A stretch of DNA of 32,000 bases from the NCBI GenBank assembly GCA_963718915.1, contig CAVRAI010000006.1, positions 30,001 through 62,000 on the forward strand, in the 5' to 3' direction. A program made the position numbers and the translations under genes. The notes beneath the pieces are model-generated. The model saw only the letters and a program-made list of their open reading frames with translations, made no database searches and was not told where the DNA came from. This document shows, in pieces, positions 10,455-29,243 of this stretch; position 1 is the stretch's first letter; each line of letters starts with the position of its first letter. The DNA is from an uncultured Chloroflexia bacterium (GTDB taxonomy: Bacteria > Chloroflexota > Ktedonobacteria > Ktedonobacterales > JADMIN01).

Positions 10455-12743
10455 ATGGAGATACAGCACATGTGGGGACGGCCAAAAGCCGATGGCGCGC
10501 AACAGCAGCCCGCCGCGCCAGACGGAAGTGTCGCGGCGCCGCAGCCGATACGCACTCCCAATGACCTGCTCCGGCGCGCCGAATGGGATCGCCTTGCCGA
10601 CGCCGACCGCGAGACGTTGATGCGCCCATTCCAGGGACGCGAGGTACCGGCGTTTGGCGACGTGGCCAGCGAGGCCTCAACTCATGCCGACCTGCGGCTA
10701 CAGGACTGGGTCGCGCAGCTCATCTCGCCCAGCTTTCAGCCACAGACCGCCGCCTATGTGCGCGCCTGGCTCTCAGATGGCTCGCCCGATGGCCACCTCT
10801 ACGTCGGCGGCTTCGGTGGACAGGGGCGCACGAGTCTCGTCGCCTCGCTGGCCCGGCAGGTGATGGTCAACGCGCTGGTTCCGGTCGAGTACTGCTATGT
10901 GCCTGACCTTGATGCGCTCGGCAAGCCGATGGCGCTGGCGGTGCCGGATGACACGGGCGCGGACTTCACCGATGCGCTGCAGACCGGATTGCGCCTGATC
11001 GCCGGAAACTGGGATGGCGCCAGCGGCGAGGGTGATTCTAGCGATAATAGCAGCGATGCGAGTGCGGCCAGTGAGGGCAGCGATAGCGGCGATGGCGGCA
11101 ACACGAGCGCAAACAGCGCCAGCAACGGCGCCGCTGCCAGCCAGGAGGCCAGCGCAAGCGCGTCATCCGCACCCGCCAGTAGCCCCGACCCGGCGGCGAT
11201 TGCCCAGCAGCGCGGCACGCTCGTCACCAAGATCATGGCCATCGTGACATCGGCGGCGCCCAGCGATGACGCGCGCGCCTACGTGGCGAAGCTCACCGCG
11301 GCGTTGCAGCAGCTTGCCAGCAAGGGCGATGATCTGCCATTCGCTGAGGACAGCGTTCCTACGGCCCATGTCACCCCCACGCCCGACTCGCTGCCCGGCG
11401 GCTCGGCGGAGAAGGGCGCGCCCGTCGTCGTGGTCTCGCTGGGGCAGACCGATCTCTCAGACGCGCTGCTGCGGGCGAACGGCGGCGTGCTCATCCTCGC
11501 GGCCACCGATACGCTCGATTCGAGCACGTGGAACTCGCTCTCCACATCGCTACGCAATCGCTCGCTGCTGCTCAAGCAGGGCTGGCCCGCGATTCCGCTC
11601 TCGGTGCATGTCGTGATGATCGGTTCAAACAGCTCCTACACAGCGCTGGTCAACAATACCGAAGATTTTAGCCGGATTTTCCGCTACGAGATCTGGTGCA
11701 ACTACGATACTGAGTGGCGGCGTGAGGCCGAGGCCACCTATGCGGCCCTCGCCACTGGTGTCAGCACGCGCCACAGCCTGCCAGCCTTCGATCCATCTGG
11801 TGTCGCCCGGCTCGTCGAGGAGGGCGCGCGGCGAGTGGATGGTCTCCAGCGGACACGCCTCTCGACCGATCTGCTGCTGCTGCACGATCTGGCGCTTCAG
11901 GCGGGGCGTGTGGCCAAGGCGCGCAACTCCGCCACGACCAGCGGCCAGGATGTCGATAACGCGCTCTTCCAGCGCAGGCAGCTTCAGGCGGGCAGCGCCG
12001 AGCGGGTGCGCTACGCGATCCTCTCCGGCCAGGAGATGACGGCGACGTTTGGCGCGGCGATTGGCCAGATCAACGGCCTGGGCATCTACGAGGTTCATCC
12101 CTCGGAAGGCACGTTCGCCGTGCCGATGCGTATCAGCGCCATCGTCAGCGTCGGCAAAGACTATTCGCTGCTCGACATCGAACGCGGCGCGGAACAGGCG
12201 GACGCCGAGCATATTCGCGGCCTGATGACGATGGAGGGCTACCTGGCGAACCGTTACGGGCAGGATCGCCCGGTGAGTCTGGCCGCGCGCATCCGCTTCG
12301 AGCAGCAGCATGGCGGCACCGGCGGCGATAGCGCCTCGGCGGCGGAACTCTTCGCGCTGCTCTCGGCGCTGGCGCAGGTAGCCATCCGGCGCTCGGTGGC
12401 GGTTACCGGCGCGGTCGGCCAGTATGGCGAGATTCAGCCGATTGGTGGCGTGAATACGAAGATCGAGGGCTTCTTCGACCTCTGCCGCGCGCGACGTGCG
12501 GCGGGCGAGCAGCCCGTCGGTGGCTACGGCGCCATCATCCCCGCGGTCAACACCCGCGACCTGATGCTCCGTCCCGACGTGGCCTACTCCATCGCGCAGG
12601 AGGGCTGGTTCAGCATCTGGCCGATCAACTGGGTGGATGAAGGCATTCCCCTGCTAATGGGCGTTGGCGCCGATCAGATACACGCGCGGGTAAACGACCG
12701 CCTCAAGCGCTTCTACGAGCTGGCGACGCAGTCACGCAAGTAG
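10455..12743 (+). CDS. Lon-like serine protease (S16, COG1067/LonC-like) with degenerate P-loop and a low-complexity insert
   Basis: - C-terminal S16 domain: GGDSASAAELFALLSALAQVAIRRSVAVTGAVGQYGEIQPIGGVNTKIEGFF (catalytic Ser in GDSAS, Lys in GGVNTK).
- N-terminal GHLYVGGFGGQGRTSLV...EYCYVPDLDALGKPMALAVPDDTGADF matches the COG1067 layout, with GxxGxGR in place of GK.
Start is uncertain: GTG 10416, ATG 10455, or ATG 10469 with a GGAG 9 nt upstream. Confidence 0.75.
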   Translation: MEIQHMWGRPKADGAQQQPAAPDGSVAAPQPIRTPNDLLRRAEWDRLADADRETLMRPFQGREVPAFGDVASEASTHADLRLQDWVAQLISPSFQPQTAAYVRAWLSDGSPDGHLYVGGFGGQGRTSLVASLARQVMVNALVPVEYCYVPDLDALGKPMALAVPDDTGADFTDALQTGLRLIAGNWDGASGEGDSSDNSSDASAASEGSDSGDGGNTSANSASNGAAASQEASASASSAPASSPDPAAIAQQRGTLVTKIMAIVTSAAPSDDARAYVAKLTAALQQLASKGDDLPFAEDSVPTAHVTPTPDSLPGGSAEKGAPVVVVSLGQTDLSDALLRANGGVLILAATDTLDSSTWNSLSTSLRNRSLLLKQGWPAIPLSVHVVMIGSNSSYTALVNNTEDFSRIFRYEIWCNYDTEWRREAEATYAALATGVSTRHSLPAFDPSGVARLVEEGARRVDGLQRTRLSTDLLLLHDLALQAGRVAKARNSATTSGQDVDNALFQRRQLQAGSAERVRYAILSGQEMTATFGAAIGQINGLGIYEVHPSEGTFAVPMRISAIVSVGKDYSLLDIERGAEQADAEHIRGLMTMEGYLANRYGQDRPVSLAARIRFEQQHGGTGGDSASAAELFALLSALAQVAIRRSVAVTGAVGQYGEIQPIGGVNTKIEGFFDLCRARRAAGEQPVGGYGAIIPAVNTRDLMLRPDVAYSIAQEGWFSIWPINWVDEGIPLLMGVGADQIHARVNDRLKRFYELATQSRK

Positions 12744-12846: not shown

Positions 12847-13300
12847 GCCGTAGGCTGAAGACCTACAGCTAATCCTTGCAAACGTGTACTCCTATGTCTT
12901 TTAGTAAGGTCAATAGAGAGCGTAAGCTGCGGCATGATGAGCCTTCGGCATGACCTCCGAAGAGTGTGCCAGGGCGTGCGAACCGGAGCCTGCCCATTCG
13001 CCGTAGCGTTATGAACGTTCACTTTATATTCCGAACACCACACGTCGTGGCGGGCGAGGCAGGCCGGAGCATAATGTACTTTTACCATGTACGACGGACA
13101 CGAGCATTGCGATGGGGTGAGCGTGCCGGAAGCCCAAAGGCCCCGGCGAATGGGTAGGGAAATTCGCCGTAGCGTTCACGCTACGGTCTGCCTCACCTAC
13201 CACGACGTAGGGTGTTCGGATGAAAAAGTAAATCACATAACGCTACGGCCTGCTCGCCCTACCGCGACGCATGGTGTTCGGCGTTTATTCCAAACATTCA
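12847..13300. repeat. cluster of short interspersed palindromic repeat units (family A: hairpin GCCGTAGCG-ttca-CGCTACGGC plus flanks; ~60-nt units in direct and inverted orientation)
   Basis: - The 35-mer GGyCTGCyTCrCCyrCCrCGACGyrkGGTGTTCGG occurs at 13187-13221 and 13246-13280 (direct) and at 13030-13064 (inverted).
- Hairpin core at 13165-13187, with partial cores at ~12990-13005 and ~13238-13246.
- GCCGTAGGCTGAAG at 12847-12860 recurs at 31321-31334.
The small ORFs across this region translate to repeat-derived peptides and are not credible genes. Confidence 0.6.
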
Positions 13301-13336: not shown

Positions 13337-13417
13337 TCACTCTTCCAGCCACTCGGTGATGAACCGCTTGCTGGCGTGGATGTCGATCTGCCAGAGCGAT
13401 CCCTCGCTGATATTGCG
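13337..13417 (-). pseudogene. 3'-terminal fragment of a cupin gene (paralogue of 15119..15463)
   Basis: Minus-strand translation NISEGSLWQIDIHASKRFITEWLEE* compares with the intact cupin C-terminus NIGEGTLQQIDIHASKRFITEWLED*. DNA identity to 15119-15200 is ~80% over ~80 nt. Similarity is lost upstream. Confidence 0.55.
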
Positions 13418-13599: not shown

Positions 13600-14991
13600 A
13601 TGACAACGATCGAACTTGCTCCAGGAGTGTCTCAGTCCGCAACGCGCGCTGAGCGGTACGCTTACGGCAAGTCCTTGCGTACCCAGGTCCCCCATAACAG
13701 TCATGGAGAGTGGGCTCCAGCGACTGACAGGCCTGATCCGCTCACTCTGCTCGAGGAGCAGAACCGCACTCGTTTGCCGCAACTGGCGCCGATCCGCATG
13801 GGACGTATGTCGCTGTCCCCGTTCGCATTCTTACGTGGCGCAGCGGTGGTCATGGCGTCTGACCTGGCGACGACGCCCGTCTCGGGTATCACGGTGCAGC
13901 TCTGCGGCGATGCGCATGTGAGTAACTTCGGCGGCTTCGCTACGCCAGAGCGCGACCTAGTCTTCGACGTGAACGACTTCGACGAGACCTTGCCAGGAGC
14001 ATGGGAATGGGACGTGAAGCGGATGGCTGCCAGCATCGTCGTCGCTGGTCGAGACAATGGGTATTCGGCTCACGATATCAGGCAGGCAGTCGTAAGGAGT
14101 ATCCAGCAGTACCAGACCGTGATGCACCAAGGGGCCAACATGACTTGCCTTGATGTGTGGTACACGCACATCGATGCTGAACACCTATCGGCGCACGTGA
14201 AACACAAAGAACAGGATCGTATTCTGAAGGATGAAAAGCGGGCGGGTCACCGCACGAACGAGGGGGTCTTTCCCAAACTGGCTGAGGTGGTTGATGGGCA
14301 GTACCGCATCAAGGATGACCCGCCTCTGATTGTGCACGTACAGCAACTGGGCAAGACACAACAAGCCGAAGCCGAAGCGATCAAGGGCTATTTTGAGGCC
14401 TATGCGCAAACACTGCCAGATGATCGCAAGGTGCTGCTCAGCAAGTATCGCGTCGTCGACATAGCGTTGAAAGTGGTAGGAGTGGGCAGCGTTGGAACAC
14501 GCTGTTGGGTCGTGCTGCTCATGGCAGGCGGGGATGGAGACGACCCTCTCTTCCTGCAGGTCAAGGAAGCAGATGCATCGACACTCGAGCCCTATTTTGG
14601 CAAGAGTGTTTACGCCAACAATGGCGAGCGCGTGGTGCAGGGGCAGCTCCTGATGCAGGAAGCGAGTGACATCTTCCTGGGCTGGACACGAGGCAAAGAG
14701 GTCGACTTCTATGTGCGGCAGTTGCGCGATATGAAGTTTTCCGCGGATATTGCGACGATGACGAAGAAGATGTTCGATTCCTACACCTGGTTATGCGCTT
14801 CGGCGCTTGCGCGAGCGCATGGCCGTAGCAGCGACCCCGCCCAAATCAGTGGCTACCTGGGCCACAGCAATGCGTTTGCACACGCGATTGCCCGCTTTGC
14901 CGAGACCTATGCTGACCAGACTGAACTCGACCACGCGGCGTTGCTCGCGGCTATCAAGAAGGGCCGCATTCAGGCGAAGGTCGACGTATAG
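13600..14991 (+). CDS. DUF2252 domain-containing protein
   Basis: RMGRMSLSPFAFLRGAAVVMASDLATTP..GITVQLCGDAHVSNFGGFATPERDLVFDVNDFDETLPGAWEWDVKRMAASIVVAGRDNG is the hallmark DUF2252 N-terminal block. 463 aa is a typical length. Confidence 0.8.
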   Translation: MTTIELAPGVSQSATRAERYAYGKSLRTQVPHNSHGEWAPATDRPDPLTLLEEQNRTRLPQLAPIRMGRMSLSPFAFLRGAAVVMASDLATTPVSGITVQLCGDAHVSNFGGFATPERDLVFDVNDFDETLPGAWEWDVKRMAASIVVAGRDNGYSAHDIRQAVVRSIQQYQTVMHQGANMTCLDVWYTHIDAEHLSAHVKHKEQDRILKDEKRAGHRTNEGVFPKLAEVVDGQYRIKDDPPLIVHVQQLGKTQQAEAEAIKGYFEAYAQTLPDDRKVLLSKYRVVDIALKVVGVGSVGTRCWVVLLMAGGDGDDPLFLQVKEADASTLEPYFGKSVYANNGERVVQGQLLMQEASDIFLGWTRGKEVDFYVRQLRDMKFSADIATMTKKMFDSYTWLCASALARAHGRSSDPAQISGYLGHSNAFAHAIARFAETYADQTELDHAALLAAIKKGRIQAKVDV

Positions 14992-15118: not shown

Positions 15119-15463
15119 TCAGTCTTCCAGCCATTCGGTGATAAACCGCTTGCTGGCATGGATGTCGATCTGCTGTAGTGTCCCCTCGCCGATGTTCACG
15201 AACTTGTGCGGCGTCTCCGGCGGAACGATGATGATCTGCCCCGGCTGCCCTTCGAGCGTCTCCGCGCCAACAGTAAAGAGTGGGCGGCCCTCCTGGACGA
15301 TGAAGATCTCTTCATATGGATGCTTGTGCAGCTTCGGCCCTGCTCCAGGTGGCAGGTCTACCCAGATGAAGGAGACGCTGCTATCCCCGTGCAGGTAGCC
15401 CTCGAACTCGTAGCTGCCGACGCCTTCCCGAATATCATCCCGGTGCAAGATTGTATAGGACAT
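15119..15463 (-). CDS. cupin domain protein
   Basis: GPKLHKHPYEEIFIVQEGRPLFTVGAETLEGQPGQIIIVPPETPHKFVNIGEG contains both cupin motifs (H.H...E and P....H.f.N.G). Strong RBS GGAGAGGAGG 6 nt before the ATG at 15463. The longer ORF extension to 15814 was rejected. Confidence 0.8.
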   Translation of the reverse strand: MSYTILHRDDIREGVGSYEFEGYLHGDSSVSFIWVDLPPGAGPKLHKHPYEEIFIVQEGRPLFTVGAETLEGQPGQIIIVPPETPHKFVNIGEGTLQQIDIHASKRFITEWLED

Positions 15464-15806
15464 CCACGTCCTCCTCTCCATGCAGTGCAACACAGCGCTA
15501 CTGATGTGGGTCACTGCTGGAGAGCGTACATCAGGGTCGCTGCAATCGCCTACAGCGCATAGACCTTGAAGTCGCTCAGTCGCAGCGTCCGTGTAATCAA
15601 AGCGGGTCGCGTCTGTGGAGAGCAGTGGCGTCTGGGTGGCGCTCGCCTGACTGGCGACGTGGCCGTCGATCAGCAGGCTCCTCGTCGAGGACGCTTCGTC
15701 GCCCAGCGGGAACGCTGCTGCCCTCCTGTTCGTCTGGCTCACATCGGCGACTGTAGGGTGCGCCAACGCCCATTTATGAGATGCAGATGTGCTAAGCATT
15801 GGTTGC

Positions 15807-15835
15807 TTGACCACGTAGTATATCTATGCTAGATT
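15807..15835 (+). promoter_or_regulatory. candidate sigma-70-type promoter for the TPR-lectin / TIR-TPR operon
   Basis: TTGACC (15807-15812), 17-nt spacer, TAGATT (15830-15835). This would give a ~215-nt leader before the GTG at 16058. Sequence match only. Confidence 0.35.
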
Positions 15836-16057
15836 CTGGAAGCCAGGTATACTGGCATTCCTGGCGCATGCACCCGCTCGGAGAGCGATTCCACTCCACC
15901 TGTGTGCGGGAAGAACATAGGTCATTGCGTGCCGTACAAGGGATGACCTCGATGTGATGACGATGCTGACGCTGCTATGGAACCTGTTCTCGTGCATGTC
16001 CCCGCCCTCCTCTTGATTGGCCCGTTTTGCGCTTGATGCAGAAGATGGAGAGTTCGA

Positions 16058-18469
16058 GTGAACGCAGACCTGCAAATGCTTGCCGAGGCCGCCACTAACG
16101 CGTTTGATCAGGAACACTACGAAGAAGCGCTGAAGAAGTACCAGGAGATCACACAACTCGATCCGAAAACCGCGTGGGCCTGGGAGCGTTTAGGCGCGGT
16201 CTGCCTCGCAATGAACGACTATAAGGGTGCGCTCCGATTCTGCACTATCGCGCTGGCGCTCGATCCCAAAAGTGGCTCGGCCTGGTTCAATCGCGGTAGG
16301 GCCTGTACGGAATTGCGACAATATCATCGAGCTATTGCAGCCTATAAACAGACCTTGAAGCTGGGTTATGACAAATCGTACTCCTACAACAACACAGGCG
16401 TTGTGTATGAGCGGTTGGGACAATACGATAAGGCGTTGTCCAACCACGATCTGGCCATACAGGCGGATGGCACGAATACGCTGGCTGTGCTGAATAAAGG
16501 GTTGATCCTCGCTCATTTCCAGCGCACCCAGAAGGGCTACGAGGAGGCGCTACGCTGTTTCGACCAGGTCCTTAGTTCGGATCCCGACAACCTGAAAGCT
16601 CTTAGTAACAAGGGGGATGTGCTCTGTCATCTCAAGCAGTTCAGCCGCGCGCGCGCCGTCTATGAGCGGATATTAGGTCTCTCCCCCAAATACACGGCTC
16701 CCTGGAATGATCCAGGTGTTCCCCTCACCGACAATCGCCTGAAAGAGCTTGAGAAAGAGGACTCGAAACGAAGTGATCAGGCGCAGATTAAGCAATTTCG
16801 TGCGGCAGGCTGGCGCTACGGCGGGGTCATCGGCGGCATCTTGCTCTTGCTCCTGGTCATCAGCACCTTCCATGAAGGTGTCGATGTCACCCAGGTGTTT
16901 CCAGCGCTCGCGGGCGATCTCACATTCGCAGCGCTCTTGGTTGTTTGCACGCTCATTTTCGGCCTCTATGGCGCATACGTCGGCAGACGGTTCGCGGCGT
17001 CCCTTGAAGCGCGATTCGGCTTCTTGAGCAAGACAACCTGGACTATTCTGGCGACGCTCGGTAGCGGGGTCATCGGGTTCGTCTGGAGCGCAATCGCCGT
17101 CCTGCTGCTCAATCGACCTGCCATCGATTGGTGGCAGTACTGGAACTTCCTCGTTGCCGCCATCATCACGGCGATTGCGATCATCGTCGGCGCTGTGCTG
17201 GGAATCGGCCTGGTGATCTGGGCGATTAACAAGGTGTACCAGAAGGCTGAGGCGGTCAAGGAAGCTATCGAGCAGTATCAGGATGCTTTCAATGCGGAGA
17301 TCTTTGGCGAGGCCATTGGCATTCAAATCATGAGTCCCCTTCAGAGCTGGGTACTCATGACCGAGATTGAAGATTGGCTCACACGTATTGACCGCGAGGA
17401 TTTGAAAGCGCTGGTCAACAAGATCGTCACGAATGACTTCGGCGAAGAGAAGCGTAAGGCCATCCTGATCTCAGGCGCGGTTGGCGCGGGAATAGGTCTT
17501 TTCCTGGGCATAATTCTCAGCCTGCTGCTCTTGCTGTCCGCTGCGCTGGTCATCCCTTATCAGGAAGTTATCCTGGGGATTGCGGTCTTCTCGGCGGTCA
17601 TTGGCCTGGTGTTGGGCCTCGCCTTCGAGAAGCGCCTGCGCCCCCGTGACGAGGTTGCGGCGGCATTCAATCGCATTCCCAGCGGAACAAGTCTGGCTGT
17701 TGCGGGCAGCGTGCTTGGCATCATGGGCAGCGTCGTCATTCTGGCCGCAACCCACCTGTCACTGCCCACGCTCGAAGCAGTCTATTCGCAGAGCTACGGT
17801 GGCCTGATTGGTGGGGCTATTCCGGGGATTATTCTTGGCGCCATGGTCGGACACCTTATCGGCTTCTTCAGCCCGAAGCAGGCTGATATTAACCGGAGCG
17901 CTGTAGCGGTTGGCGCTGGTAAGGTGTTTTCAGGCGTTTCGGCTGTCGGTAAAGTCGCGCTGGGTGGCGCCGTGGCGGTGGCGGTCATCCTGTTTTGTGG
18001 CTTCCCGCTCTTTGGCGCAATCCTTTACCACCCTGCTTCAGCCGCCGCCGATCAAACGGTCACAGTTGACGCGGGCAAGGGCTGGCAGGATACTGGATTT
18101 GTCGTTCAACCGGGAGATGAGCTCACGATCACCTATGTGTCCGGGCAATGGTCTGTTACAGGGAGCAACTCGCCACTCTCTGACGCCAACGGCAAACCAG
18201 CGAATCCGCCTGCCGATCTCTATTGCCATTGCGGTGAGCCGCTCCCAGGCGTATCGACTCAGGCGCTCATCGGCAAGGTAGGCAATGGCGGCAAAGCGTT
18301 CCTGGTTGGCGATAGTTATACCTTCACCGCTGCCACCAGTGGCGATATATTCTTGCGCATAAATGACCGTGATAGTCATCTCGGCGATAATACCGGTGCG
18401 CTACAGATAGTGATGTCGCTGGTGACGCCAACGCCAACACCGGCGTTAACACCAACAACCACGCCATAG
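16058..18469 (+). CDS. TPR-repeat / polytopic membrane / PA-IL (LecA)-like lectin domain protein
   Basis: 803 aa, with RBS GGAGAG 6 nt before the GTG start.
- aa 1-~215: ~6 TPRs (e.g. AWFNRGRACTELRQYHRAIAAYKQTLKL).
- aa ~255-650: about 9 hydrophobic helices by eye, with a ~75-aa soluble loop.
- C-terminus: aligns block by block with P. aeruginosa LecA (VQPGDELTITYVSGQWS / ANGKPANPPADLYCH / ALIGKVGNGGKAFLVG / GDIFLRINDRDSHLGDNTGALQIVM).
- Tail: TPTPTPALTPTTTP. Confidence 0.8.
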   Translation: MNADLQMLAEAATNAFDQEHYEEALKKYQEITQLDPKTAWAWERLGAVCLAMNDYKGALRFCTIALALDPKSGSAWFNRGRACTELRQYHRAIAAYKQTLKLGYDKSYSYNNTGVVYERLGQYDKALSNHDLAIQADGTNTLAVLNKGLILAHFQRTQKGYEEALRCFDQVLSSDPDNLKALSNKGDVLCHLKQFSRARAVYERILGLSPKYTAPWNDPGVPLTDNRLKELEKEDSKRSDQAQIKQFRAAGWRYGGVIGGILLLLLVISTFHEGVDVTQVFPALAGDLTFAALLVVCTLIFGLYGAYVGRRFAASLEARFGFLSKTTWTILATLGSGVIGFVWSAIAVLLLNRPAIDWWQYWNFLVAAIITAIAIIVGAVLGIGLVIWAINKVYQKAEAVKEAIEQYQDAFNAEIFGEAIGIQIMSPLQSWVLMTEIEDWLTRIDREDLKALVNKIVTNDFGEEKRKAILISGAVGAGIGLFLGIILSLLLLLSAALVIPYQEVILGIAVFSAVIGLVLGLAFEKRLRPRDEVAAAFNRIPSGTSLAVAGSVLGIMGSVVILAATHLSLPTLEAVYSQSYGGLIGGAIPGIILGAMVGHLIGFFSPKQADINRSAVAVGAGKVFSGVSAVGKVALGGAVAVAVILFCGFPLFGAILYHPASAAADQTVTVDAGKGWQDTGFVVQPGDELTITYVSGQWSVTGSNSPLSDANGKPANPPADLYCHCGEPLPGVSTQALIGKVGNGGKAFLVGDSYTFTAATSGDIFLRINDRDSHLGDNTGALQIVMSLVTPTPTPALTPTTTP

Positions 18470-18513
18470 GTCGGAGAGGCCAGTAGCTCACCCAGTCGCC
18501 AGGAGCGCCACTC

Positions 18514-20661
18514 ATGAGCAGTACCAGGATATTCGTGAGCCATAGCCATGTTGATAATGACTTCTGCCTGAAGTTGGTCGAGGGGCTGACCACGGCAGGC
18601 GCGGATGTCTGGTATGACGAACACGATCTTGGCGCCGTCGAATTGACGCGAACTATCATGGCGGAACTGCGCCAACGCCCGATTTTCCTGCTGGTGCTTT
18701 CCCCAGAGGCGCTGCTCTCACAGTGGGTGGAAAATGAGAGCCTATGGGCATTCACCCTGTATCAGCGTGACCGAGAGCGTTCACGAGTCATCCTGCCAAT
18801 TCTGGCGCGGGATGTTCGCCCAGAAGAAATATGGCTATTTCTCTCAGAATTCAAGCGCATCGAGGGGGGAAACTGTCGCGCGTTGCCGACGCAAGAGGCC
18901 GTTGCCAGGGCGCTGGCGATGCTCTCGCTGACCACACCTGGTGGCTCTGCGCATGAGCTGTCGGCTGGATCGTTTACCATCGACTATCTCTTTGAGCAGG
19001 GGACAGCGTTGTTGGCGCAGAAACGGTTTGCCGAGGCGCTCGCTATCTTCGACACCGCTATTGTGGTCGAGCCAGCTAATTCGACGGCGTGGAGCTATAA
19101 GGCACGTACGCTCTCGAATATGCCAGGGCGCACCGCCGATGCGTTCGCCGCCGCCGAAGAGGCGATTCGGCTGAATCCTCGGAATGTGATTGCCTGGAAC
19201 TGCAAAGGCAATGCCCTGCGTGATCTCAAACGCTTTGAAGAAGCCATTACCTGCTATGATGAGGCGCTCCACCTCGACCCGAAATATACGACGGTCTGGA
19301 GCAACAAAGCGCTGACTCTCCTCAACCTGGAACGCTATGAGGAAGCTATTGCATGTAGCGAGAAAGCCATCGAACTCGATCCCGATGGCTATTCGATTTG
19401 GCCATCGAACGGATACGGCTGGACTGTCAAAGGCATTACGTTGCGTATCATGAAGCGGTACGATGAGGCGCTTGACTGTTTCGACAAAGCGATTGAAATT
19501 GATGCTCAGGATGATTATGCCTGGCAAAGCAAAGGGCTGACGCTGAATAGCATGCGGCGCTATGACGAGGCTATCGTTTGCTACGACCGGGCTTTTGCGG
19601 CCAACCCCCAAAATACCTTCGCCCTGACGAGCAAAGGGCTGACGCTGAGCAGCCTTCAGAAAAGCTACGACGAAGTGATGGCCTGCTTCAAACAGGCGAT
19701 TGCTATTGCCTCAGAGACTGCCGATAGTTGGAGAGCGCAGACCGCCTACCTGCTCGATCTGCGTCATTTCGACGAGGCGCTCCCCTCGGCGACGAAAACG
19801 GTTGAACTCGATCCAACAGATGGGCCGTCCTGGCTGATGAAAGCGGAGGCGCTCAGAGAGTTGAAGCGCTATGATGAGGCTCTTCCTTGCTATGACAAGA
19901 CGGTTGAGTTGGATCCAACAGAGGTAATGGGCTGGTCCGACAGAGGGGTGACCTTGATGATGTTGAAGCGCTATGAGCAGGCGATTGAGTCTTTGAATCA
20001 GGCGCTGCAACTCGATGGACAGAATCTTCCAACGCTGAAGAATAAAGGCTACGCGCTCGAACAACTCGAACGTTTCGAGGAGGCGCTCCGCTGCTACGAG
20101 CAGATGCTGGCGATTGATCCCCGGAATTACAGCGGCTGGACTTCAAAAGGAAATGCGCTCTGGCGGTTAGAGCGCAATGATGAGGCGCTTGCCAGCTTTG
20201 AGCAAGCCACAGCCATCGAACCACAAAACGGATTTGGCTGGCGCTGCAAGGGTATCGTGCTAGAGCAATTCAAACGCTATGATGACTCGCTCGCCTGCTA
20301 CAATCGGGCGCTGGCTCTTGACCCGCAGGATGCGATGACGATGCGGCTAAAAGGGTGGCTCTATTTCACGAATCTGCATAACAACGCCGAGGCGCTGGTC
20401 TGGTTCGATAAGTCGCTCCAGGCCAATCCGCAGGACGCTACCAATTGGCTCAACAAAGCCCGCGTGTTGAGCGCGCTGCGACGCCATGACGAGGCGATAA
20501 CCTGCTGCGATAAAGCGATTGCGCTTGACCCACAGAGTGGTCAAGCATGGCATGTCAAAGGCGAGATGCTGATGGCGTCAGGCGGATTCTTGACCAAGCC
20601 ACGTCGCATGGAGGCTGAGGCTGCCCTGGAGCGTGCGCGTGAACTCGGCTATGGCCGATGA
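18514..20661 (+). CDS. TIR domain - TPR repeat protein
   Basis: - N-terminal ~130 aa is TIR_2-like: RIFVSHSHVDNDFCLKLVEGLTTAGADVWYDEHDL...PIFLLVLSPEALLSQWVENESLWA, with the S-x-W-x3-E motif that carries the catalytic Glu in NADase TIRs.
- About 16 consecutive 34-aa TPRs follow (AWxxKGxxLxxLxRYDEAIxCYDKAIELDP).
- No NTPase domain lies between them.
Starts 44 nt after the preceding gene. Confidence 0.85.
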   Translation: MSSTRIFVSHSHVDNDFCLKLVEGLTTAGADVWYDEHDLGAVELTRTIMAELRQRPIFLLVLSPEALLSQWVENESLWAFTLYQRDRERSRVILPILARDVRPEEIWLFLSEFKRIEGGNCRALPTQEAVARALAMLSLTTPGGSAHELSAGSFTIDYLFEQGTALLAQKRFAEALAIFDTAIVVEPANSTAWSYKARTLSNMPGRTADAFAAAEEAIRLNPRNVIAWNCKGNALRDLKRFEEAITCYDEALHLDPKYTTVWSNKALTLLNLERYEEAIACSEKAIELDPDGYSIWPSNGYGWTVKGITLRIMKRYDEALDCFDKAIEIDAQDDYAWQSKGLTLNSMRRYDEAIVCYDRAFAANPQNTFALTSKGLTLSSLQKSYDEVMACFKQAIAIASETADSWRAQTAYLLDLRHFDEALPSATKTVELDPTDGPSWLMKAEALRELKRYDEALPCYDKTVELDPTEVMGWSDRGVTLMMLKRYEQAIESLNQALQLDGQNLPTLKNKGYALEQLERFEEALRCYEQMLAIDPRNYSGWTSKGNALWRLERNDEALASFEQATAIEPQNGFGWRCKGIVLEQFKRYDDSLACYNRALALDPQDAMTMRLKGWLYFTNLHNNAEALVWFDKSLQANPQDATNWLNKARVLSALRRHDEAITCCDKAIALDPQSGQAWHVKGEMLMASGGFLTKPRRMEAEAALERARELGYGR

Positions 20662-20671
20662 AGCTCACTGG

Positions 20672-20737
20672 CCGTAGCGTTCACGCTACGGCGAATTTCC
20701 CTACCCATTCGCCGGGGCCTTTGGGCTTCCGGCACGC
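20672..20737. repeat. family-A repeat copy, near-perfect inverted copy of 13121-13186; its hairpin may double as a bidirectional terminator
   Basis: 20672-20737 equals the reverse complement of 13121-13186 except for the 2 loop positions of the GCCGTAGCG/CGCTACGGC hairpin (64 of 66). It starts 11 nt after the TIR-TPR stop, between convergent genes. Confidence 0.8.
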
Positions 20738-20811
20738 TCCCCACATACAACGACCCAGCCAGACTTGGTATAATCTACTGGTATCTGGATCCAGGCGAAG
20801 ATACTACGACA

Positions 20812-22614
20812 TCAATACGGTCTGCTCGTCCGTGCGGCCTCTATTTCTGCCGCTTTTCTTCCCAAAAACGCTATGACGATAACTATCAGATAGAAGAATT
20901 GGCCCCCACCCAGCAGCACGAGAGACTCTTCTACGACACTACGGATGGTGGAAAGTGCAATTTGGTGATTGGTAAACAGGTTGAATGGCGCCTGTACATT
21001 GGCAAGATTCAGCGTTGCCCCTGGTAACGCTGTGTTTAACAGAATGTCCGCGCCTACCAGACTTCCTGTCAGAAGTAGCACGAGCAACAGTACTGCTCTC
21101 GAAGTGTCATTGTCCCGGTCTACAGAAATGGCAAGCATCCCAGTGAAAGCGGCAATGCCGGCAAAGACAAGTCCGATCAGGTTGCCATTCAAGGCGGAGA
21201 AGATATCTGGATTTATGGCAATCCAGTGGTAGCAGACTCCCAACAGCAGGAAGAATATGCCCCCCTGAAATTGGAGCATCTCGTACTCTTTCTGGATCCC
21301 CGCAAGCTCTGGCGGTTGTTGCGGCAGCAATGAACCTTGTATTTTTTCGCCACCCTGGTTGGCTTGTCCTGTTTGTTGAGACGATTTTAGGCTATTTGAA
21401 CCGTCTGGCAATGCAAGAATAGCCTGGGGCGCCGCGAGTATGCCCGCGGATCGGCGTTGATGGTTCGCGACCTGGTCCGCTCGAAACGACTCTCGCGCGA
21501 GTTGAGTCAGCGGGAAGAACAGGAGGAAAATTGAGGCTGCTACACCACCTTCAAGCCAAATCGCATAATTCAGCCCGCTATTGTGTGTTATACCCACAAA
21601 TGCCCCACTTGCCGCAATCAGAGTAACTGCTAGAGCGAGCAATGGAAGGAATGTCATGCGTTTGAATTTTTGGCCATAGGCGATTACAAAGACGGCATCA
21701 AACTGAATGAGCAGATAGAACACGGCGGCAATATTCAATACGACAGGGTCAACAACATGCCACGTTGACTCGGAGATAACCCCCAGGAGCCAAAATACGA
21801 GATTGAGGACCGTTGAGACAAGCAGATAGCGAACCAGGAGACTCACTGACTGTTCTTTGGATGCGGAAGGCTTTGAGAAGGCTGGCCCAAAGAAGAAGGA
21901 GAGAACGAAGGCAGTCACAATAGCAGCGAGAAGATACCATTGCACGATCAAAGAATCGTGCCAAAATAACGTCAGGGCGATAGCAAGAGTGTTCACAAGG
22001 ATGTAGGTTGCGAGCACTCGCTGTGCGCCTGGGGCTTCCTTGGCGGCTTGTGAACCCCAAATTAAAACCCCAAAATATTGGGCAGCAAGTGGCGCCACGG
22101 CGAGGATTTCAGCAACAATCAGGAATGTGAGCGGCCAGTGTTGCAGCTCCCATCCTATTACCAGGCCCACGAGCGTGATGAGCAGAAAGAAGGTATCTAT
22201 TCGACTGCCGTTAGGTGTGTTGAACTGCGCTAACCAGCCTACTGTCAATACCAGGCCACACACGGACAAAAGACCGTGAAGAATCACGGCAATCACCGTA
22301 TATGTTGGCAGCGCGGGAATGAATAACCATGAGGTATTCGGAATGGGCGGTGGGAACGGGAGCCGCGTCGGGGGAGTAGCGAACGCCAACCAAACGGCAT
22401 AAAGCGGTAACAATTCGTAGACCAGGAGCCACTTCAGTTCAAGTTTCAGCACAAATCCAAATTGACGCGATCTGAGCTCGAAAGCAAAATTCACGATACC
22501 AAGTATAAGTGAAAGCACAATGCCAGCGAGAAAGAAAGGGTATAGCGCTGGGTTCTGCCCTTTCTCGGCAACGAATATTCCATGATTCCATATGGTGTCG
22601 AGCAAATTCTGCAT
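20812..22614 (-). CDS. large polytopic integral membrane protein, no recognisable family
   Basis: 600 aa from the ATG at 22614 (RBS GGTGGGGGGA 5 nt upstream; the ORF extends to 22674). More than 14 hydrophobic segments, with a central Q/G/S-rich hydrophilic loop (...SSQQTGQANQGGEKIQGSLLPQQPPE...). It has the lowest GC in the window. Confidence 0.7.
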   Translation of the reverse strand: MQNLLDTIWNHGIFVAEKGQNPALYPFFLAGIVLSLILGIVNFAFELRSRQFGFVLKLELKWLLVYELLPLYAVWLAFATPPTRLPFPPPIPNTSWLFIPALPTYTVIAVILHGLLSVCGLVLTVGWLAQFNTPNGSRIDTFFLLITLVGLVIGWELQHWPLTFLIVAEILAVAPLAAQYFGVLIWGSQAAKEAPGAQRVLATYILVNTLAIALTLFWHDSLIVQWYLLAAIVTAFVLSFFFGPAFSKPSASKEQSVSLLVRYLLVSTVLNLVFWLLGVISESTWHVVDPVVLNIAAVFYLLIQFDAVFVIAYGQKFKRMTFLPLLALAVTLIAASGAFVGITHNSGLNYAIWLEGGVAASIFLLFFPLTQLARESFRADQVANHQRRSAGILAAPQAILALPDGSNSLKSSQQTGQANQGGEKIQGSLLPQQPPELAGIQKEYEMLQFQGGIFFLLLGVCYHWIAINPDIFSALNGNLIGLVFAGIAAFTGMLAISVDRDNDTSRAVLLLVLLLTGSLVGADILLNTALPGATLNLANVQAPFNLFTNHQIALSTIRSVVEESLVLLGGGQFFYLIVIVIAFLGRKAAEIEAARTSRPY

Positions 22615-22822
22615 CACTGTCCCCCCACCCATCAAAGTAGTGTTAGTTGACGCCGAACAACCCAAAACTTGCACGTATAATGAACCATATAAGCGACAAT
22701 GTCAACAGAACTGGTGTTCAAGTGTCACTAGCAGTTCTTAGCGAGCGGTTTTTGGTTGCTGAAATGCTACATTGATGGAATCGTGTCGGCAAAGTTACTA
22801 ACACAGAAAATTGAGAAGAGAT

Positions 22823-24575: not shown

Positions 24576-25682
24576 TCACGCGGGCGCGTTCCAGACGTGA
24601 ACAACGCCATCCAGGCTGGCTGAGGCGATTTTACTGCCGTCAGGCGACCACGCCACCGCGTGCAGCAGCCCGCCCGGCTGCCCTTTGATCTTTTCTTGCG
24701 AGACATGCCCGCGATAGGTGAAGACGGCCGTCCCATTCGTGGCATCCCAGACCTGCACCAGTTGATCCGCGCCACCAGAGGCGATATATTTGCCCTGGGG
24801 CGACCAGCTCACTGTCTCGACCGGCGCCTTGTGGCCAGTAAAGGTGGTGATAGTATTCGCCTGAATGGTATCCCATACCTGGGCTGTGCCGTCGCTGCTG
24901 GCCGAGACAACCTGCGTGCTGTCGGGTGACCACGCCACACTATTCACCGCCTGCGAGTGATTGCGATAGACGATGCTGTCGCCGCCGGTCACGGCGTTGA
25001 AAACGCGCGCCGTGTAATCGCCACTGCCGCTGGCGATCCGCGTGCCATCGGGGGACCAGCGAACCGTGAAGACAAAGCTGAGATAGCGGGTATAGGTGAA
25101 CAGCGTCGAGGCCGTCGATGCGCCCCAGATGGCCGTGGTGTGGTCGGCGCTGCCACTGGCGATCTTCGTGTTATCGGGCGACCAACTGACTGAGTTGACA
25201 TCGTTGGTATGGCCAGTATACGTCTGAATCATTTTGCCGGTCGGCGCGTCCCAGACCTGGGCGGTGTTATCAGCGCTGCCCGTCACCAGGAGCGTGCCAT
25301 TGGGCGCCCAGCCAACGTCCCACACCTCCTTGGTATGGCCCTTGTAGGTGAGCAGGGTCTCGCCCGTCGCGGCATTCCAGACCATGACGGTCTGATCGGT
25401 GCTGGCCGAGGCGATTTTTGTGCCGTCAGGCGACCAGGCGAGACCATTGACCGAGGCGCTGTGGCCTTTATAGACGAGGAGCGGCGAACCTGACGAGGGT
25501 ACCTTCGTCGCGGCGGGCGAGAAACCGGGAACCGCACAGCCCGCGACTCCCAGCGCCAGCGCGCCAGCGGCCAGCCCGCGCAGCATATCCCGCCGCGAGA
25601 TGCGCGCCGCCATTTTCCTCTCGCTTGCCGCACTCATCTCGCCCATCTCACTCGTACCATCCATCGCGCGCCCTATCTGCAT
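24576..25682 (-). CDS. WD40 beta-propeller protein with Tat-type signal and lipobox (exported lipoprotein)
   Basis: - SRRDMLRGLAAGALALGVAGC is a twin-arginine motif plus hydrophobic region plus an L-x-x-C lipobox.
- Seven repeats of GHxxxVxxVAWSPDGxxIASxSxDxTxxVW follow.
The true start is probably the ATG at 25613 (MAARISRRD). Confidence 0.85.
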   Translation of the reverse strand: MQIGRAMDGTSEMGEMSAASERKMAARISRRDMLRGLAAGALALGVAGCAVPGFSPAATKVPSSGSPLLVYKGHSASVNGLAWSPDGTKIASASTDQTVMVWNAATGETLLTYKGHTKEVWDVGWAPNGTLLVTGSADNTAQVWDAPTGKMIQTYTGHTNDVNSVSWSPDNTKIASGSADHTTAIWGASTASTLFTYTRYLSFVFTVRWSPDGTRIASGSGDYTARVFNAVTGGDSIVYRNHSQAVNSVAWSPDSTQVVSASSDGTAQVWDTIQANTITTFTGHKAPVETVSWSPQGKYIASGGADQLVQVWDATNGTAVFTYRGHVSQEKIKGQPGGLLHAVAWSPDGSKIASASLDGVVHVWNAPA

Positions 25683-29235: not shown

Positions 29236-29243
29236 TAAGACGG

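Follow-up and report, generated by a model that had tools for sequence, protein, structure and literature searches.

Single bacterial proteins that join a TIR domain to TPRs form a known class: TIR+TPR is a catalogued bacterial TIR architecture (PMC7075850), and TIR-II of E. coli, a single protein of this kind, acts against phage in a way that requires its TIR active site (Nat Commun 2024, PMC11350192). TIR-II is described as the most widespread TIR system, and in some cases one or two further proteins go with it (PMC11350192). Two-gene arrangements have also been described. In Thoeris, the TIR gene adjoins a partner; some partners are membrane proteins, and one partner has a TPR domain that is proposed to perceive the signal made by the TIR (bioRxiv 10.64898/2025.12.03.692087). 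BcTir/BcTpr of Bacillus cereus is a two-gene TIR/TPR anti-phage operon whose proteins form a complex (bioRxiv 10.1101/2023.05.26.542521). In the Avs/STAND TIR-NTPase-TPR and effector-NTPase-repeat proteins, the TIR domain is N-terminal and the TPRs are C-terminal, and these proteins are enriched in multicellular, large-genome bacteria (PMC7159879).

The locus described here consists of two ORFs in the window, that is, the whole 32,000-nt stretch of Ktedonobacterales (Chloroflexota) DNA that was analysed (Table 1). Like TIR-II, with which we compare it by described architecture alone, gene 2 carries TIR and TPRs in one protein; unlike the window pair, TIR-II has no described lectin or polytopic membrane partner, and ∼30% of TIR-II systems have an ATPase domain, whereas gene 2 has none and belongs to a family confined to Ktedonobacterales-type genomes. 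ThsB of Thoeris lacks a 15-TPR array, and an extracytoplasmic lectin occurs in no described Thoeris type; the ThsB models of PADLOC match the gene 2 TIR weakly (E 4e-7), and no ThsA-type effector (SIR2/SLOG, TM-Macro, or other described type) is found in gene 1 or in any window ORF. In BcTir/BcTpr, the NAD-glycosidase domain belongs to the TPR protein, and its partner consists of a TIR alone, whereas the window has the TIR and a long TPR array in one protein, together with a membrane lectin partner. Unlike the Avs/STAND proteins, gene 2 has no NTPase: Pfam shows only TIR_2 and TPR families, with no P-loop NTPase between them. Among the window ORFs there is likewise no CBASS, Pycsar, or SPARTA partner (CD-NTase, PycC cyclase, or Argonaute), and PADLOC returns only weak, domain-level TIR matches. 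An initial annotation of this DNA had described a TIR effector with no NTPase, SIR2, Ago, or cyclase partner, as the domain and PADLOC searches of the window ORFs also find, and had recognized no named system. PADLOC indeed matches no complete system (gene 1 has no hit at all, and gene 2 has only generic, partial TIR/TPR matches), but the TIR+TPR class itself is already known from TIR-II.

Both ORFs lie on the same strand, 44 nt apart, at precisely the coordinates first assigned to them. Because dN/dS relative to a close relative (L007) is 0.48 for gene 1 and 0.32 for gene 2, both are real genes under purifying selection. Gene 2 has its own ribosome-binding site (AGGAG at 18501-18505, 8 nt ahead of the ATG), and no terminator-like site is present on the coding strand of the spacer. 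The suggestion that the module has one candidate promoter holds in part: the upstream 9/12 match exists, but the 3′ end of gene 1 contains promoter-like matches that are as good as the 15807-15835 site, and the region as a whole has 11 such sites, compared with 4.9 expected.

Table 1. Positions of the features discussed in the text, numbered from the first letter of the window
Feature	Position	Strand	Remarks
Promoter-like site	15807..15835	+	TTGACC-17-TAGATT + TG extension; upstream of gene 1; 9/12 consensus match only
Gene 1 ribosome-binding site	16047..16052	+	GGAGAG, 5 nt ahead of GTG; direct sequence reading
Gene 1	16058..18469	+	803 aa, GTG start; TPRs (predicted cytoplasmic), 9 TM segments, LecA-like lectin (predicted outside)
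Gene 1 N-terminal TPR array	16106..16690	+	6 units, residues 17-211; no signal peptide, predicted cytoplasmic
Gene 1 hydrophobic segments 1-4	16802..17239	+	residues 249-394; K/R-rich loop 311-327 predicted inside
Gene 1 soluble loop	17240..17455	+	residues 395-466 (length 72), cytoplasmic by prediction
Gene 1 hydrophobic segments 5-9	17456..18040	+	residues 467-661; two K/R-rich loops (528-541, 607-622), both predicted to face inside
Gene 1 C-terminal LecA/PA-IL-fold lectin	18050..18427	+	residues ∼665-790, predicted extracytoplasmic
Lectin loop N769-D770-R-D-S-H-L-G-D777-N778-T-G780	18362..18397	+	aligned to LecA N99-D100...N107-N108-S-G110 (1l7l, 5odu, 30ew)
Intergenic spacer	18470..18513	+	44 nt, gene 1 stop to gene 2 start
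Gene 2	18514..20661	+	715 aa, ATG start; TIR-TPR protein
Gene 2 TIR domain	18514..18921	+	Pfam residues 6-103; modelled beta/alpha fold to ∼residue 136
Glu75 codon	18736..18738	+	predicted catalytic glutamate (W71-V-E-N-E75), from alignment with AbTir
Gene 2 TPR array	19000..20535	+	15 units, residues 163-674
75-nt structured repeat copy	20670..20746	.	starts 9 nt after gene 2 stop; MFE -38.8 kcal/mol, z = -3.0

Domain architecture of the two proteins

Residues 6-103 of gene 2 match TIR_2 (PF13676) with a score of 56.6 bits, well over the cutoff of 28 (E 4.7e-15), and the modelled TIR region, which includes a family-specific WLFL..FKRIE segment, has a pLDDT that is mostly >85. It carries the motif S69-Q-W71-V-E-N-E75, in which E75 is at least 90% conserved (24 family members) and aligns, at the sequence level only, with the Glu of W-T-N-Y-E in AbTir (7uwg/8g83), the W-x-x-x-E position of helix alphaC. 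A phmmer search of the PDB matches 3h16, 7uxr, 7uwg, 8g83, and 9mud, and the nearest solved relatives by sequence include proven NADases, such as AbTir, annotated “NAD(+) hydrolase.” This TIR is of the AbTir/PdTIR/BtTIR type, and because it retains the catalytic glutamate, it would most likely cleave NAD+ upon TIR self-association. In the model, helices 108-136 are followed by a short low-confidence linker and by TPRs from residue 156, and the TIR-to-TPR junction spans about 25-60 residues; the array is followed by a helical cap and tail (residues 675-715), with the tail “RxxEAxxAExRAxxLG” common to the family. The catalytic-Glu motif SQWVENE had been read correctly in the initial annotation, as had the fusion of the TIR to a long TPR array; its count of ∼16 TPRs becomes 15 clear units plus the C-terminal cap. 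The gene 2 family is large, with several paralogues per genome, and has members in Ktedonobacterales/Chloroflexia MAGs only; searches of viral contigs, phages, and plasmids yielded no relatives, the phage and plasmid tblastn matching the TPR part alone.

Residues 1-215 of gene 1 match Pfam TPR families (E 2e-25), and a purpose-built repeat HMM places the units at residues 17-37, 42-71, 76-102, 110-139, 158-176, and 183-211; they are ordinary TPR_1/TPR_2 units, with ∼30% identity to the TPRs of gene 2. The array is predicted to be cytoplasmic because a signal peptide is absent. Topology was assigned with a 19-residue Kyte-Doolittle hydropathy scan rather than a trained predictor; the scan detects no hydrophobic segment ahead of residue 249, followed by segments at 249-278, 277-310, 328-356, 358-394, 467-527, 542-572, 579-606, and 623-661, counted as nine TM helices (467-527 being of double length). 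The K/R-rich loops at 311-327, 528-541, and 607-622 fit an N-in/C-out orientation, and the same hydropathy and positive-inside pattern recurs in a homologue of the type found in the divergent MAG L004 (P0123; 36% identity). Given the nine hydrophobic segments and the three K/R-rich inside loops, the lectin end of gene 1 probably lies outside the cell and the TPRs inside. The six TPRs, the nine hydrophobic segments, and the missing signal peptide agree with the cytoplasmic TPR array and the ∼9 TM helices first proposed, and the prediction that an odd TM count places the lectin outside is matched by both the hydropathy and the positive-inside pattern. The 72-residue loop has no Pfam match, and its FGE and WL..I.R positions are kept in L004, as is a GxFSPKQAxI motif in the region of residues 467-661. 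The membrane region as a whole is extremely rare, with three lineages among 1.84 billion representatives and no match in two metagenome scans. Gene 1 has no enzymatic domain, and Pfam, NCBIfam, and PADLOC detect in it none of the known domains that bind signals or act as effectors (SIR2, SLOG, Macro, SAVED, SLATT).

At the C-terminus of gene 1, followed by a Pro/Thr-rich tail (to 18466), the Pfam PA-IL family (PF07828) scores 20.8 bits on gene 1 alone, just below the cutoff of 22.5 (E 4e-4, residues 675-785). The assignment as a LecA-fold lectin, made from profiles and a structural model, is nonetheless firm, because an 18-sequence lectin family profile matches PA-IL (E 8e-9) and PllA (E 1.8e-8) in the PDB, because all 11 PDB matches with E<=1e-3 in a fold search with the AlphaFold model (pLDDT 91.4, pTM 0.83) are LecA, PllA, or EclA (target TM 0.70-0.79), and because 17 of the 112 lectin homologues match PA-IL directly (best E 1.3e-15); the LecA/PA-IL-type lectin of the initial annotation is thereby retained. 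Within the loop listed in Table 1, D770, D777, and N778 align with D100, N107, and N108 of LecA (PllA likewise has D at the N107 position), and N769, D770, and G780 are invariant across the gene 1 homologues. In LecA, we take this loop to be the Ca2+/galactose site, with D100, N107, and N108 binding Ca2+. The HMMER alignment to LecA covers the C-terminal half only, and the N-terminal half with the H50/Q53 positions (galactose contacts) falls outside it; in an alignment by eye, gene 1 has the stretch NPPAD there, and the residues seem to differ. LecA from Pseudomonas aeruginosa, PllA from Photorhabdus, and the N-domain of EclA share the beta-sandwich fold and the ND...G[DN]NxG loop, but they are small soluble lectins, whereas in gene 1 the domain forms the predicted ectodomain at the C-terminus of a protein with nine TM segments.

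Conservation and genomic context of the pair

The pair is present in the close relative L007, where it is colinear with the window, and in the divergent MAG L004 (also in L046), with ∼35% identity for gene 1, ∼60% identity for gene 2, and different flanks. Gene order in L004 and L046 is the same, with a gap of 23 nt (or a called overlap) compared with 44 nt in the window, and the L004 homologue of gene 1 also has 803 aa and an identical domain layout. Homologues of the two genes are thus adjacent elsewhere, as expected of a genuine two-gene module. The window, L007, L004, and L005 form a TIR clade that is supported by a bootstrap of 100/100, and gene 1 is present on both sides of its basal split; within this clade, L005 has no gene 1 within 6 kb. 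Gene 1 and gene 2 form a predicted conserved two-gene operon that is specific to one Ktedonobacterales clade, and the exact pair is carried by two independent lineages only. Gene 1 is absent at 38 of 42 related TIR-TPR loci, and because these 38 loci stand alone, the TIR-TPR family functions without gene 1 in most genomes and gene 1 is dispensable for the family. TIR-TPR relatives sometimes adjoin type I restriction-modification genes.

The GC3 of the module is 0.65, compared with 0.77-0.84 in the flanks, and dS relative to L007 is 0.18-0.20 in the module and 0.47-0.53 in the flanks; the low GC3 and low dS speak for accessory DNA. The initial annotation had considered this lower-GC, repeat-flanked segment consistent with accessory or defence-island DNA. 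The low GC and the repeats are real, but there is no defence island and the repeats delimit no element: the window neighbours (DnaX, MarR/ABC, a Lon-like protein, DUF2252, cupin, aminotransferase, GNAT, WD40, and a Ser/Thr kinase) are not defence-like, and no known defence genes were found beside the module among the window ORFs. A mobile element bounded by the 75-nt inverted repeat that flanks the module was also rejected, since each repeat copy belongs to an indel found in the window alone, one to the left and one to the right of the module, outside the block conserved in L007; colinearity with L007 includes the leader (15773-16057) and ends at 20678. Going by its modelled structure, the copy behind gene 2 may serve as a terminator hairpin or 3′ boundary, and it is probably not part of the module proper because it is not conserved in L007.

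Coupling of the lectin to TIR domains

Homologous lectins are coupled to TIR domains in two further, independent cases. In an operon of L047, a TIR-DUF7019 gene is followed by a 3TM-lectin gene (lectin identity 54%), and P0264, known from one 1.4-kb contig, is a single-chain TIR_2-TM-lectin protein with one TM helix (lectin identity 39%, E 2e-23). BLASTP finds no relation among the TIR_2 domains of gene 2, L047, and P0264, and Glu is present at the catalytic position in the latter two as well. The homologous lectin also caps the receptor Ser/Thr kinases P0222 and P0263 and the kinase-like-TPR-TM protein P0163, which suggests that the LecA-like ectodomain provides the input of signalling proteins that span the membrane. 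These contexts are few and were chosen by similarity (P0124, P0134, and P0140 are uninformative, and P0126 adjoins UbiD). In most lectin homologues, the domain belongs to a protein that is plainly extracellular and carries PKD, fn3, CARDB, or peptidase modules, two homologues have caspase domains, and homologous lectin domains elsewhere come after signal peptides or single TM anchors. The central idea of the initial annotation, that a lectin outside the cell is coupled to a TIR in the cytoplasm, gains independent support from L047, P0264, and the kinase-TM-lectin receptors; the TPR-TPR relay proposed with it cannot be the general principle of the TIR-lectin link, because L047 and P0264 link the two without any TPR.

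Our preferred explanation, which we hold tentatively and as somewhat short of probable, is that the operon couples a cell-surface glycan receptor (gene 1) to a TIR NADase (gene 2) in an outside-in direction. Gene 1 would be a receptor that itself has no enzymatic output, having the six TPRs and the 72-residue loop inside and a Ca2+-type LecA-fold lectin outside. A multivalent glycan, carried by a phage, a neighbouring cell, or the cell’s own envelope, would bind the lectin and thereby cluster or rearrange the membrane protein, the cytoplasmic face of which would recruit or release the TIR-TPR protein; the TIR domains would then assemble into an active NADase, leading through NAD+ depletion or a cADPR-type signal to growth arrest or death. 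Anti-phage defence would be the default guess for the biological role.

The two genes could instead be co-located but functionally independent, gene 2 being a self-sufficient sensor-effector, as its 38 stand-alone relatives and TIR-II of E. coli would be, and gene 1 a lectin anchor for adhesion, filament or biofilm cohesion, or envelope organization; the two would then share no more than inheritance and transcription. Most family members, and L005 too, do without gene 1, the LecA-type domains of most homologues are in plainly extracellular proteins, LecA is described in the literature as a biofilm and adhesion lectin, and the promoter-like sites in the 3′ end of gene 1 could drive gene 2 alone. 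We nevertheless consider independence rather unlikely: adjacency has been kept, with gaps of 23-44 nt, through divergence to 35% identity and a change of context, and independence leaves unexplained both the homologous lectins beside (L047) or fused to (P0264) TIRs of different lineages and the presence of a cytoplasmic TPR array on a lectin anchor. Another possibility is a Thoeris-like operon, with a polarity opposite to that of the initial annotation, in which the 15 gene 2 TPRs would sense a phage protein, the TIR would make a cADPR-type signal, and gene 1, perceiving it with its cytoplasmic TPR or loop region, would damage the membrane through the nine-helix domain. Such an operon gives the outside lectin no role, and P0264 joins the TIR to the lectin through one TM helix in the same chain, which contains no effector; the kinase-TM-lectin proteins use the lectin as an input module; moreover, gene 1 has neither a known signal-binding domain in the Pfam, NCBIfam, and PADLOC searches nor TPRs other than ordinary ones resembling those of gene 2. 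New Thoeris types do have TM-helix effectors, and the TPR domain of ThsI has been proposed to perceive cADPR (bioRxiv 10.64898/2025.12.03.692087); BcTir/BcTpr also consists of a TIR gene and a TPR-bearing partner, and membrane disruption requires no enzymatic domain, of which gene 1 has none. On balance, we regard reversed polarity as improbable.

The same hardware could serve a social role, analogous to the fungal allorecognition systems, with the lectin reading glycans on neighbouring filaments or spores (kin, non-kin, or damage cues) and the TIR setting off programmed cell death or a halt in development in these multicellular filaments. The filamentous, differentiating lifestyle of Ktedonobacteria counts in favour of such a role, as do the confinement of the family and its paralogues to Ktedonobacterales/Chloroflexia MAGs, the lack of relatives in the viral contigs, phages, and plasmids searched, the caspase domains on two lectin homologues, and, as weak evidence, the position of the locus outside any defence island. 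TIR/caspase-effector conflict systems are, in addition, enriched in multicellular prokaryotes (PMC7159879). The type I restriction-modification genes that sometimes lie beside TIR-TPR relatives argue the other way, and we give the social role only a slim chance. We think it very improbable that the TIR, like those of animal TLR adaptors, serves assembly without catalysis, and that the pair is a membrane-associated TPR/TIR scaffold for some other process with no NAD+ chemistry. TPR arrays are scaffolds, and TIR domains are commonly protein-interaction modules (PMC7075850), but the catalytic Glu and S-x-W-V-x-x-E are conserved in the family, the Glu is found also in the unrelated TIRs of L047 and P0264, and proven NADases (AbTir) are among the solved structures nearest to it in sequence.

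The preferred outside-in explanation invites a functional analogy with the animal Toll-like/IL-1 receptors, in which a ligand-binding domain outside the cell is connected across the membrane to a TIR in the cytoplasm; exactly this order is found in the single chain of P0264, whereas the window would split this receptor logic across two proteins. The animal ectodomains are LRR or Ig rather than lectin and show no homology to it, no common descent is implied, and the bacterial TIRs, with their catalytic Glu retained, are closer in character to NADases than to TIRs that recruit adaptors. Within these bounds, the lectin-TIR couplings, including the one fused into a single protein, suggest that bacteria have a receptor laid out like an animal Toll-like receptor.

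Architecture of the two-gene module

The module consists of two co-directional ORFs separated by a 44-nt spacer, each preceded by a purine-rich ribosome-binding site, with coordinates identical to those of the initial annotation (see table). Near the module, an Rfam scan detected neither riboswitches nor leaders. In gene 1, residues 1-215 match TPR families (Pfam TPR_1, E = 2e-25), with six units counted by a repeat HMM, and the first hydrophobic segment in a hydropathy scan starts at residue 249. From there on, eight stretches of hydrophobic residues, one of them of double length (i.e., nine helices), alternate with three short K/R-rich loops (311-327, 528-541, and 607-622), a pattern that would be expected for an N-in/C-out protein. 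The same pattern is present in P0123, a 36% identical gene 1 homologue of the type seen in locus L004, in agreement with the initial reading of about nine transmembrane (TM) helices and a lectin outside the cell.

Features of the module and of the window-specific indels relative to the syntenic locus L007
Feature	Position	Strand	Remarks
Ribosome-binding site, gene 1	16047-16052	+	GGAGAG, purine-rich
Gene 1 (TPR-9TM-lectin)	16058..18469	+	ORF, 803 aa, GTG start
Ribosome-binding site, gene 2	18501-18505	+	AGGAG, purine-rich
Gene 2 (TIR-TPR)	18514..20661	+	ORF, 715 aa, ATG start
Indel vs L007	12744-15117		DUF2252 gene 13600-14991; 78-nt duplicate of cupin gene 3' end
Indel vs L007	20679-22839		Holds the 620-aa polytopic membrane ORF
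620-aa polytopic membrane ORF	20812-22674	-	GC 0.51, GC3 0.54

The C-terminal domain of gene 1 matches Pfam PA-IL marginally (20.8 bits, below the cutoff of 22.5). It has more than 2,000 relatives in an exhaustive HMMER search; a profile of 18 relatives matches PA-IL (E = 8e-9), PllA (E = 1.8e-8), and LecA (0.005) in the PDB, and 17 of 112 lectin homologues pass Pfam PA-IL directly. The AlphaFold model of the domain (pLDDT 91.4, pTM 0.83) has 11 significant PDB matches, all of them LecA, PllA, or EclA (target TM 0.70-0.79), and together these results bear out the assignment as a LecA/PA-IL-type lectin. The loop N769-D770...G-D777-N778-x-G780 aligns with LecA N99-D100...N107-N108, which we take to be the Ca2+/sugar loop; the alignment leaves unaligned the N-terminal half, the half of LecA that holds H50 and Q53, presumably its galactose contacts. 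In relatives, the domain is found after a signal peptide (P0126) or single TM anchors (P0124 and P0132), which fits an outside location of the gene 1 lectin.

Gene 2 begins with a TIR_2 domain (Pfam score 56.6 bits, cutoff 28; E = 4.7e-15). Beyond it lie a segment particular to the family and an array of 15 TPR units, and the C-terminal tail is conserved; the TIR-TPR fusion thus stands as first described, with the estimate of ~16 repeats revised to 15 by the repeat HMM. The closest TIR domains by sequence are PdTIR (3h16), BtTIR (7uxr), AbTir (7uwg/8g83, annotated as an NAD+ hydrolase), and Cat1. W71-V-E-N-E75 aligns with AbTir W-T-N-Y-E, making E75 presumably the equivalent of the AbTir catalytic Glu and upholding, at the sequence level, the catalytic-Glu motif noted earlier. 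Residues 1-300 are modeled confidently (pLDDT 90); a fold search with the TIR-TPR model was dominated by TPR structures and returned no TIR superposition. An unusual conserved trait of this TPR flavor is a Cys at one helix-B position in most gene 2 units (window 19000-20535; e.g., ITCYDEA, LDCFDKA, LACYNRA, and LRCFDQV) and in two gene 1 units.

NTPase, SIR2, cyclase, and Argonaute domains are absent from both proteins and from the window. PADLOC has no match to gene 1, and its matches to gene 2 are limited to partial TIR/TPR ones, so that, generic matches aside, the module indeed corresponds to no system in that database. The TIR class itself is nonetheless not new: TIR-II, a validated E. coli anti-phage system reported to be the most widespread TIR system (PMC11350192), likewise combines TIR and TPR in one protein, and bacterial proteins of >700 aa with an N-terminal TIR and a C-terminal TPR region have been catalogued as a group (PMC7075850). 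A TIR/TPR operon, BcTir/BcTpr, has also been described (bioRxiv 10.1101/2023.05.26.542521). The module thus joins a known TIR-TPR type with a lectin partner for which we could not find a previous description; neither PADLOC nor the literature searches turned up a TIR system whose sensor, lectin or otherwise, lies outside the cytoplasm.

Conservation of the pair and its genomic setting

All relatives come from Ktedonobacterales or 'Chloroflexia' metagenome-assembled genomes (MAGs). The TIR-TPR family yields 660 matches in a word search and 42 loci in species-representative genomes, often with multiple paralogues per genome. When all loci were searched by tblastn, gene 1 was found directly upstream of a TIR-TPR gene only in L007 (MFD00031.bin.2.123, the nearest relative, 89% identity over the module; 85%/89% for the pair) and in L004 (35%/58-61%), with L046 as another assembly of that type. 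In L004, an 803-aa gene 1 homologue with an equal three-part layout is followed, after a 23-nt gap, by a ~750-aa TIR-TPR gene, and the pair is thus conserved despite flanks (OmdA, GH57, and a glycosyltransferase) unrelated to those of the window. In a neighbor-joining tree of TIR domains, the window, L007, L004, and L005 form one clade (bootstraps 100/100) that splits into (window, L007) and (L004, L005); because the window, L007, and L004 carry the pair, each of the two basal branches contains gene 1. L005 itself lacks gene 1 within 6 kb. Its divergent 773-aa neighbor, considered as a substitute partner, spans the membrane once, has no match in Pfam, and is unrelated to gene 1.

The membrane region of gene 1 is very rare: the only occurrences found are those in the window/L007 type, in the L004 type, and in P0134. 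The last represents a third gene 1 lineage; it has TM helices and lectin but no TPRs, and its gene has co-directional neighbors on either side. Metagenome scans with P0134 and with an alignment of the gene 1 TM region gave no matches, and word-index searches with the lectin domain of gene 1, alone or together with the TM region, returned only gene 1 itself and P0132.

Several observations concern the loci themselves. In L007 (5990-8099), the gene 2 ATG position reads ATC and frameshifts split both module genes; since the flanking aminotransferase gene is also frameshifted, assembly error is likelier than pseudogenization. Several MAGs hold three to four TIR-TPR paralogues whose TPR parts differ in length (~320-770 aa), reminiscent of a diversified repertoire of receptors, and tandem TIR-TPR paralogues lie in L018 (4423-8307) and L012 (2199-7686). 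In L001/L006 (1217-5348), the TIR-TPR gene directly follows the type I restriction-modification genes HsdM and HsdS, near a HigB/HigA-like pair.

The window's other genes are ordinary (LamG-like, DnaX, SRP RNA, MarR plus ABC transporter, Lon-like, DUF2252, cupin, class V aminotransferase, GNAT, WD40 plus Ser/Thr kinase, luciferase-like monooxygenase, and PaaA/C), and the proposal that this is defense-island DNA is not borne out. Across the TIR-TPR family, support for a defense island is weak as well: type I restriction-modification genes adjoin the TIR-TPR gene in two or three of ~26 loci. Two loci have TIR paralogues in tandem, and the remaining neighbors are ordinary. Among these window genes, the SRP RNA is of the large bacterial type (Rfam RF01854, 142.6 bits; 6386-6648, minus strand) and adjoins dnaX (4754-6124). 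At 24576-27158 (minus strand), a 368-aa WD40 beta-propeller gene, whose repeats make up the 39-nt direct-repeat family D1, lies directly beside a 469-aa Ser/Thr kinase gene, forming another pair of repeat protein and signaling enzyme. A 775-aa protein (10416-12743, plus strand), kept in L007, weakly matches LonB-type AAA, LID, and Lon_C models (E values from 3e-10 to 5e-6) and could be either a BrxL-like defense protease or a housekeeping Lon-like protein.

As to the earlier description of a lower-GC, repeat-flanked segment, the low GC holds at third codon positions (GC3 of 0.65-0.66 in the module against 0.77-0.84 in most flanking genes) and the inverted repeat is real: 75-nt copies at 13112-13186 and 20672-20746 are 95% complementary, and a third copy lies at 31311-31387. 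The repeat is intergenic and structured (perfect palindrome core, GCCGTAGCGTTCACGCTACGG; fold z = -3.0), and its three copies in 32 kb compare with zero expected by chance. It occurs in none of the fetched loci, not even in the syntenic L007, and in this genome it appears to be a REP/MITE-like element. The module (15773-20678) and L007 are colinear, and the two inverted copies lie in the window-specific indels on either side of this block, so we rejected the notion of a repeat-flanked mobile segment. The first indel also holds the cupin duplicate (13337-13414 vs 15119-15196, 85%); the membrane ORF in the second has no Pfam, NCBIfam, or PADLOC match and no tblastn match in L001-L045. A second dispersed repeat family (29239-29421 and 31197-31264; 68-nt direct copies of 90% identity, 35-nt near-perfect inverted arms) is intergenic, around paaA-like genes.

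The module does look accessory in character. Its dS relative to L007 is 0.18-0.20, against 0.47-0.53 (~2.5-fold) for the flanking Lon-like and aminotransferase genes; together with the lower GC3, this suggests that the lineage acquired the module recently or exchanged it by recombination, and that horizontal exchange between lineages involved just the module block. With dN/dS of 0.48 (gene 1) and 0.32 (gene 2), against ~0.19 for the flanks, both genes are under purifying selection. Carriage by a prophage or plasmid was considered and rejected, as viral-contig scans with both genes and phage and plasmid tblastn searches found no relatives other than generic TPR matches.

LecA-like lectins joined to TIR and other signaling domains

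Homologous lectins are coupled to TIR domains at least three times, in three distinct ways: in the TPR-9TM-lectin plus TIR-TPR operon of the window, in a second operon, and in a single chain. In the second operon (L047), a co-directional gene (612-1877) for a 421-aa TIR_2+DUF7019 protein lies upstream, at a distance of 153 nt, of the gene for P0132 (~3 TM helices and a lectin domain 54% identical to that of gene 1); the DUF7019 domain (E = 1.2e-16) is placed C-terminal to the TIR domain. In the single chain, P0264 (403 aa), TIR_2 (residues 5-143, 50.2 bits) is joined to a LecA-like lectin that is 39% identical to that of gene 1 (E = 2e-23) and retains the ND...DNxG loop; between the two, one TM helix is flanked by a charged linker on the TIR side and a Ser/Thr/Pro linker on the lectin side. 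By BLASTP, the TIR domains of P0264 and L047 are not significantly similar to that of gene 2 (E = 20 and 0.037), and each keeps a Glu at the W/F-x-x-x-E position (DFVRLE and FVASE).

Homologous LecA-like ectodomains are also joined through a TM helix to receptor Ser/Thr kinases (P0222 and P0263) and are carried by a kinase-like-TPR-TM protein (P0163), and two of the 112 lectin homologues have Peptidase_C14 (caspase) domains. Taken together, the operon, the fusion, the window's module, and the kinase and caspase proteins indicate that these lectins have repeatedly been joined to cytoplasmic signaling or death domains, in a small sample of contexts that was picked by similarity rather than randomly. 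In that sample, P0126 adjoins UbiD, and three further contexts were too short. The LecA-like ectodomains on kinase and caspase proteins constitute an uncharacterized family of lectin-type receptors. The two-gene observation of the initial annotation is confirmed and its interpretation supported in part: the core idea, an outside lectin coupled to TIR, is strengthened from beyond the window, and the points on the defense island, the repeat flank, and an unnamed TIR class are corrected.

Possible mechanism, alternatives, and implications

TIR NADases are activated by TIR self-association (SARM1, AbTir filaments, TIR-SAVED, TIR-STING, SPARTA), and LecA-type lectins are multivalent oligomers. The analysis shows the domains, the predicted topology, the kept adjacency, and the recurrent TIR-lectin coupling; going beyond these, we propose that a multivalent glycan could cluster the gene 1 membrane protein through its lectin. 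The cytoplasmic face (the TPRs and a 72-residue loop) would respond to the clustering and recruit or release the TIR-TPR protein, which would lead to TIR assembly and NAD+ cleavage. In P0264, coupling of lectin to TIR would be direct. A TPR-TPR relay between the two proteins is possible in the module; because L047 and P0264 lack TPRs, it is not a general principle. That in some bacteria an outside LecA-fold lectin senses surface glycan and drives cytoplasmic TIR assembly, in the manner of a Toll-like receptor and built at least three separate times out of homologous lectins and unrelated TIRs, is a reading that we advance tentatively.

Somewhat unlikely, in our view, is that genes 1 and 2 function independently; the remaining 38 TIR-TPR loci have varied neighbors and no gene 1, and where gene 1 does occur upstream, as in L004, the pair is kept in unrelated surroundings. 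A Thoeris-like reversal, with gene 1 as the effector, gains credibility from Thoeris effectors that carry TM helices or TPRs (bioRxiv 10.64898/2025.12.03.692087), and we consider it improbable all the same. Equally doubtful is a social or developmental cell-death role, a reading to be set beside the caspase-bearing lectin homologues. That the gene 2 TIR is a non-catalytic scaffold appears very improbable; E75 is at least 90% conserved across 24 gene 2 relatives. Should the TIR-lectin link be spurious, what remains would be an ordinary member of a known TIR-TPR class beside a membrane lectin.

To our knowledge, bacterial TIR systems have been described as responding to infection from inside the cell. 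A response from within the cell is what is reported for the TIR systems in PMC11350192 and bioRxiv 10.64898/2025.12.03.692087. If glycan sensing by the lectin does drive TIR assembly, TIR immunity or cell death in bacteria could be triggered from outside (by phage adsorption or cell-cell contact) and not by cytoplasmic cues only. Wiring of a TIR output to a glycan-binding domain outside the cell would represent the first case in bacteria of surface-triggered TIR signaling and would parallel, in concrete form, the ectodomain-TM-TIR layout of animal Toll-like receptors, with the single chain P0264 and the two-gene modules offering small constructs for ligand-induced TIR activation. A receptor role would then fall to the LecA-like domains, which are widespread yet little studied in Chloroflexota and elsewhere among bacteria and are also found on receptor kinases and caspase-bearing proteins.
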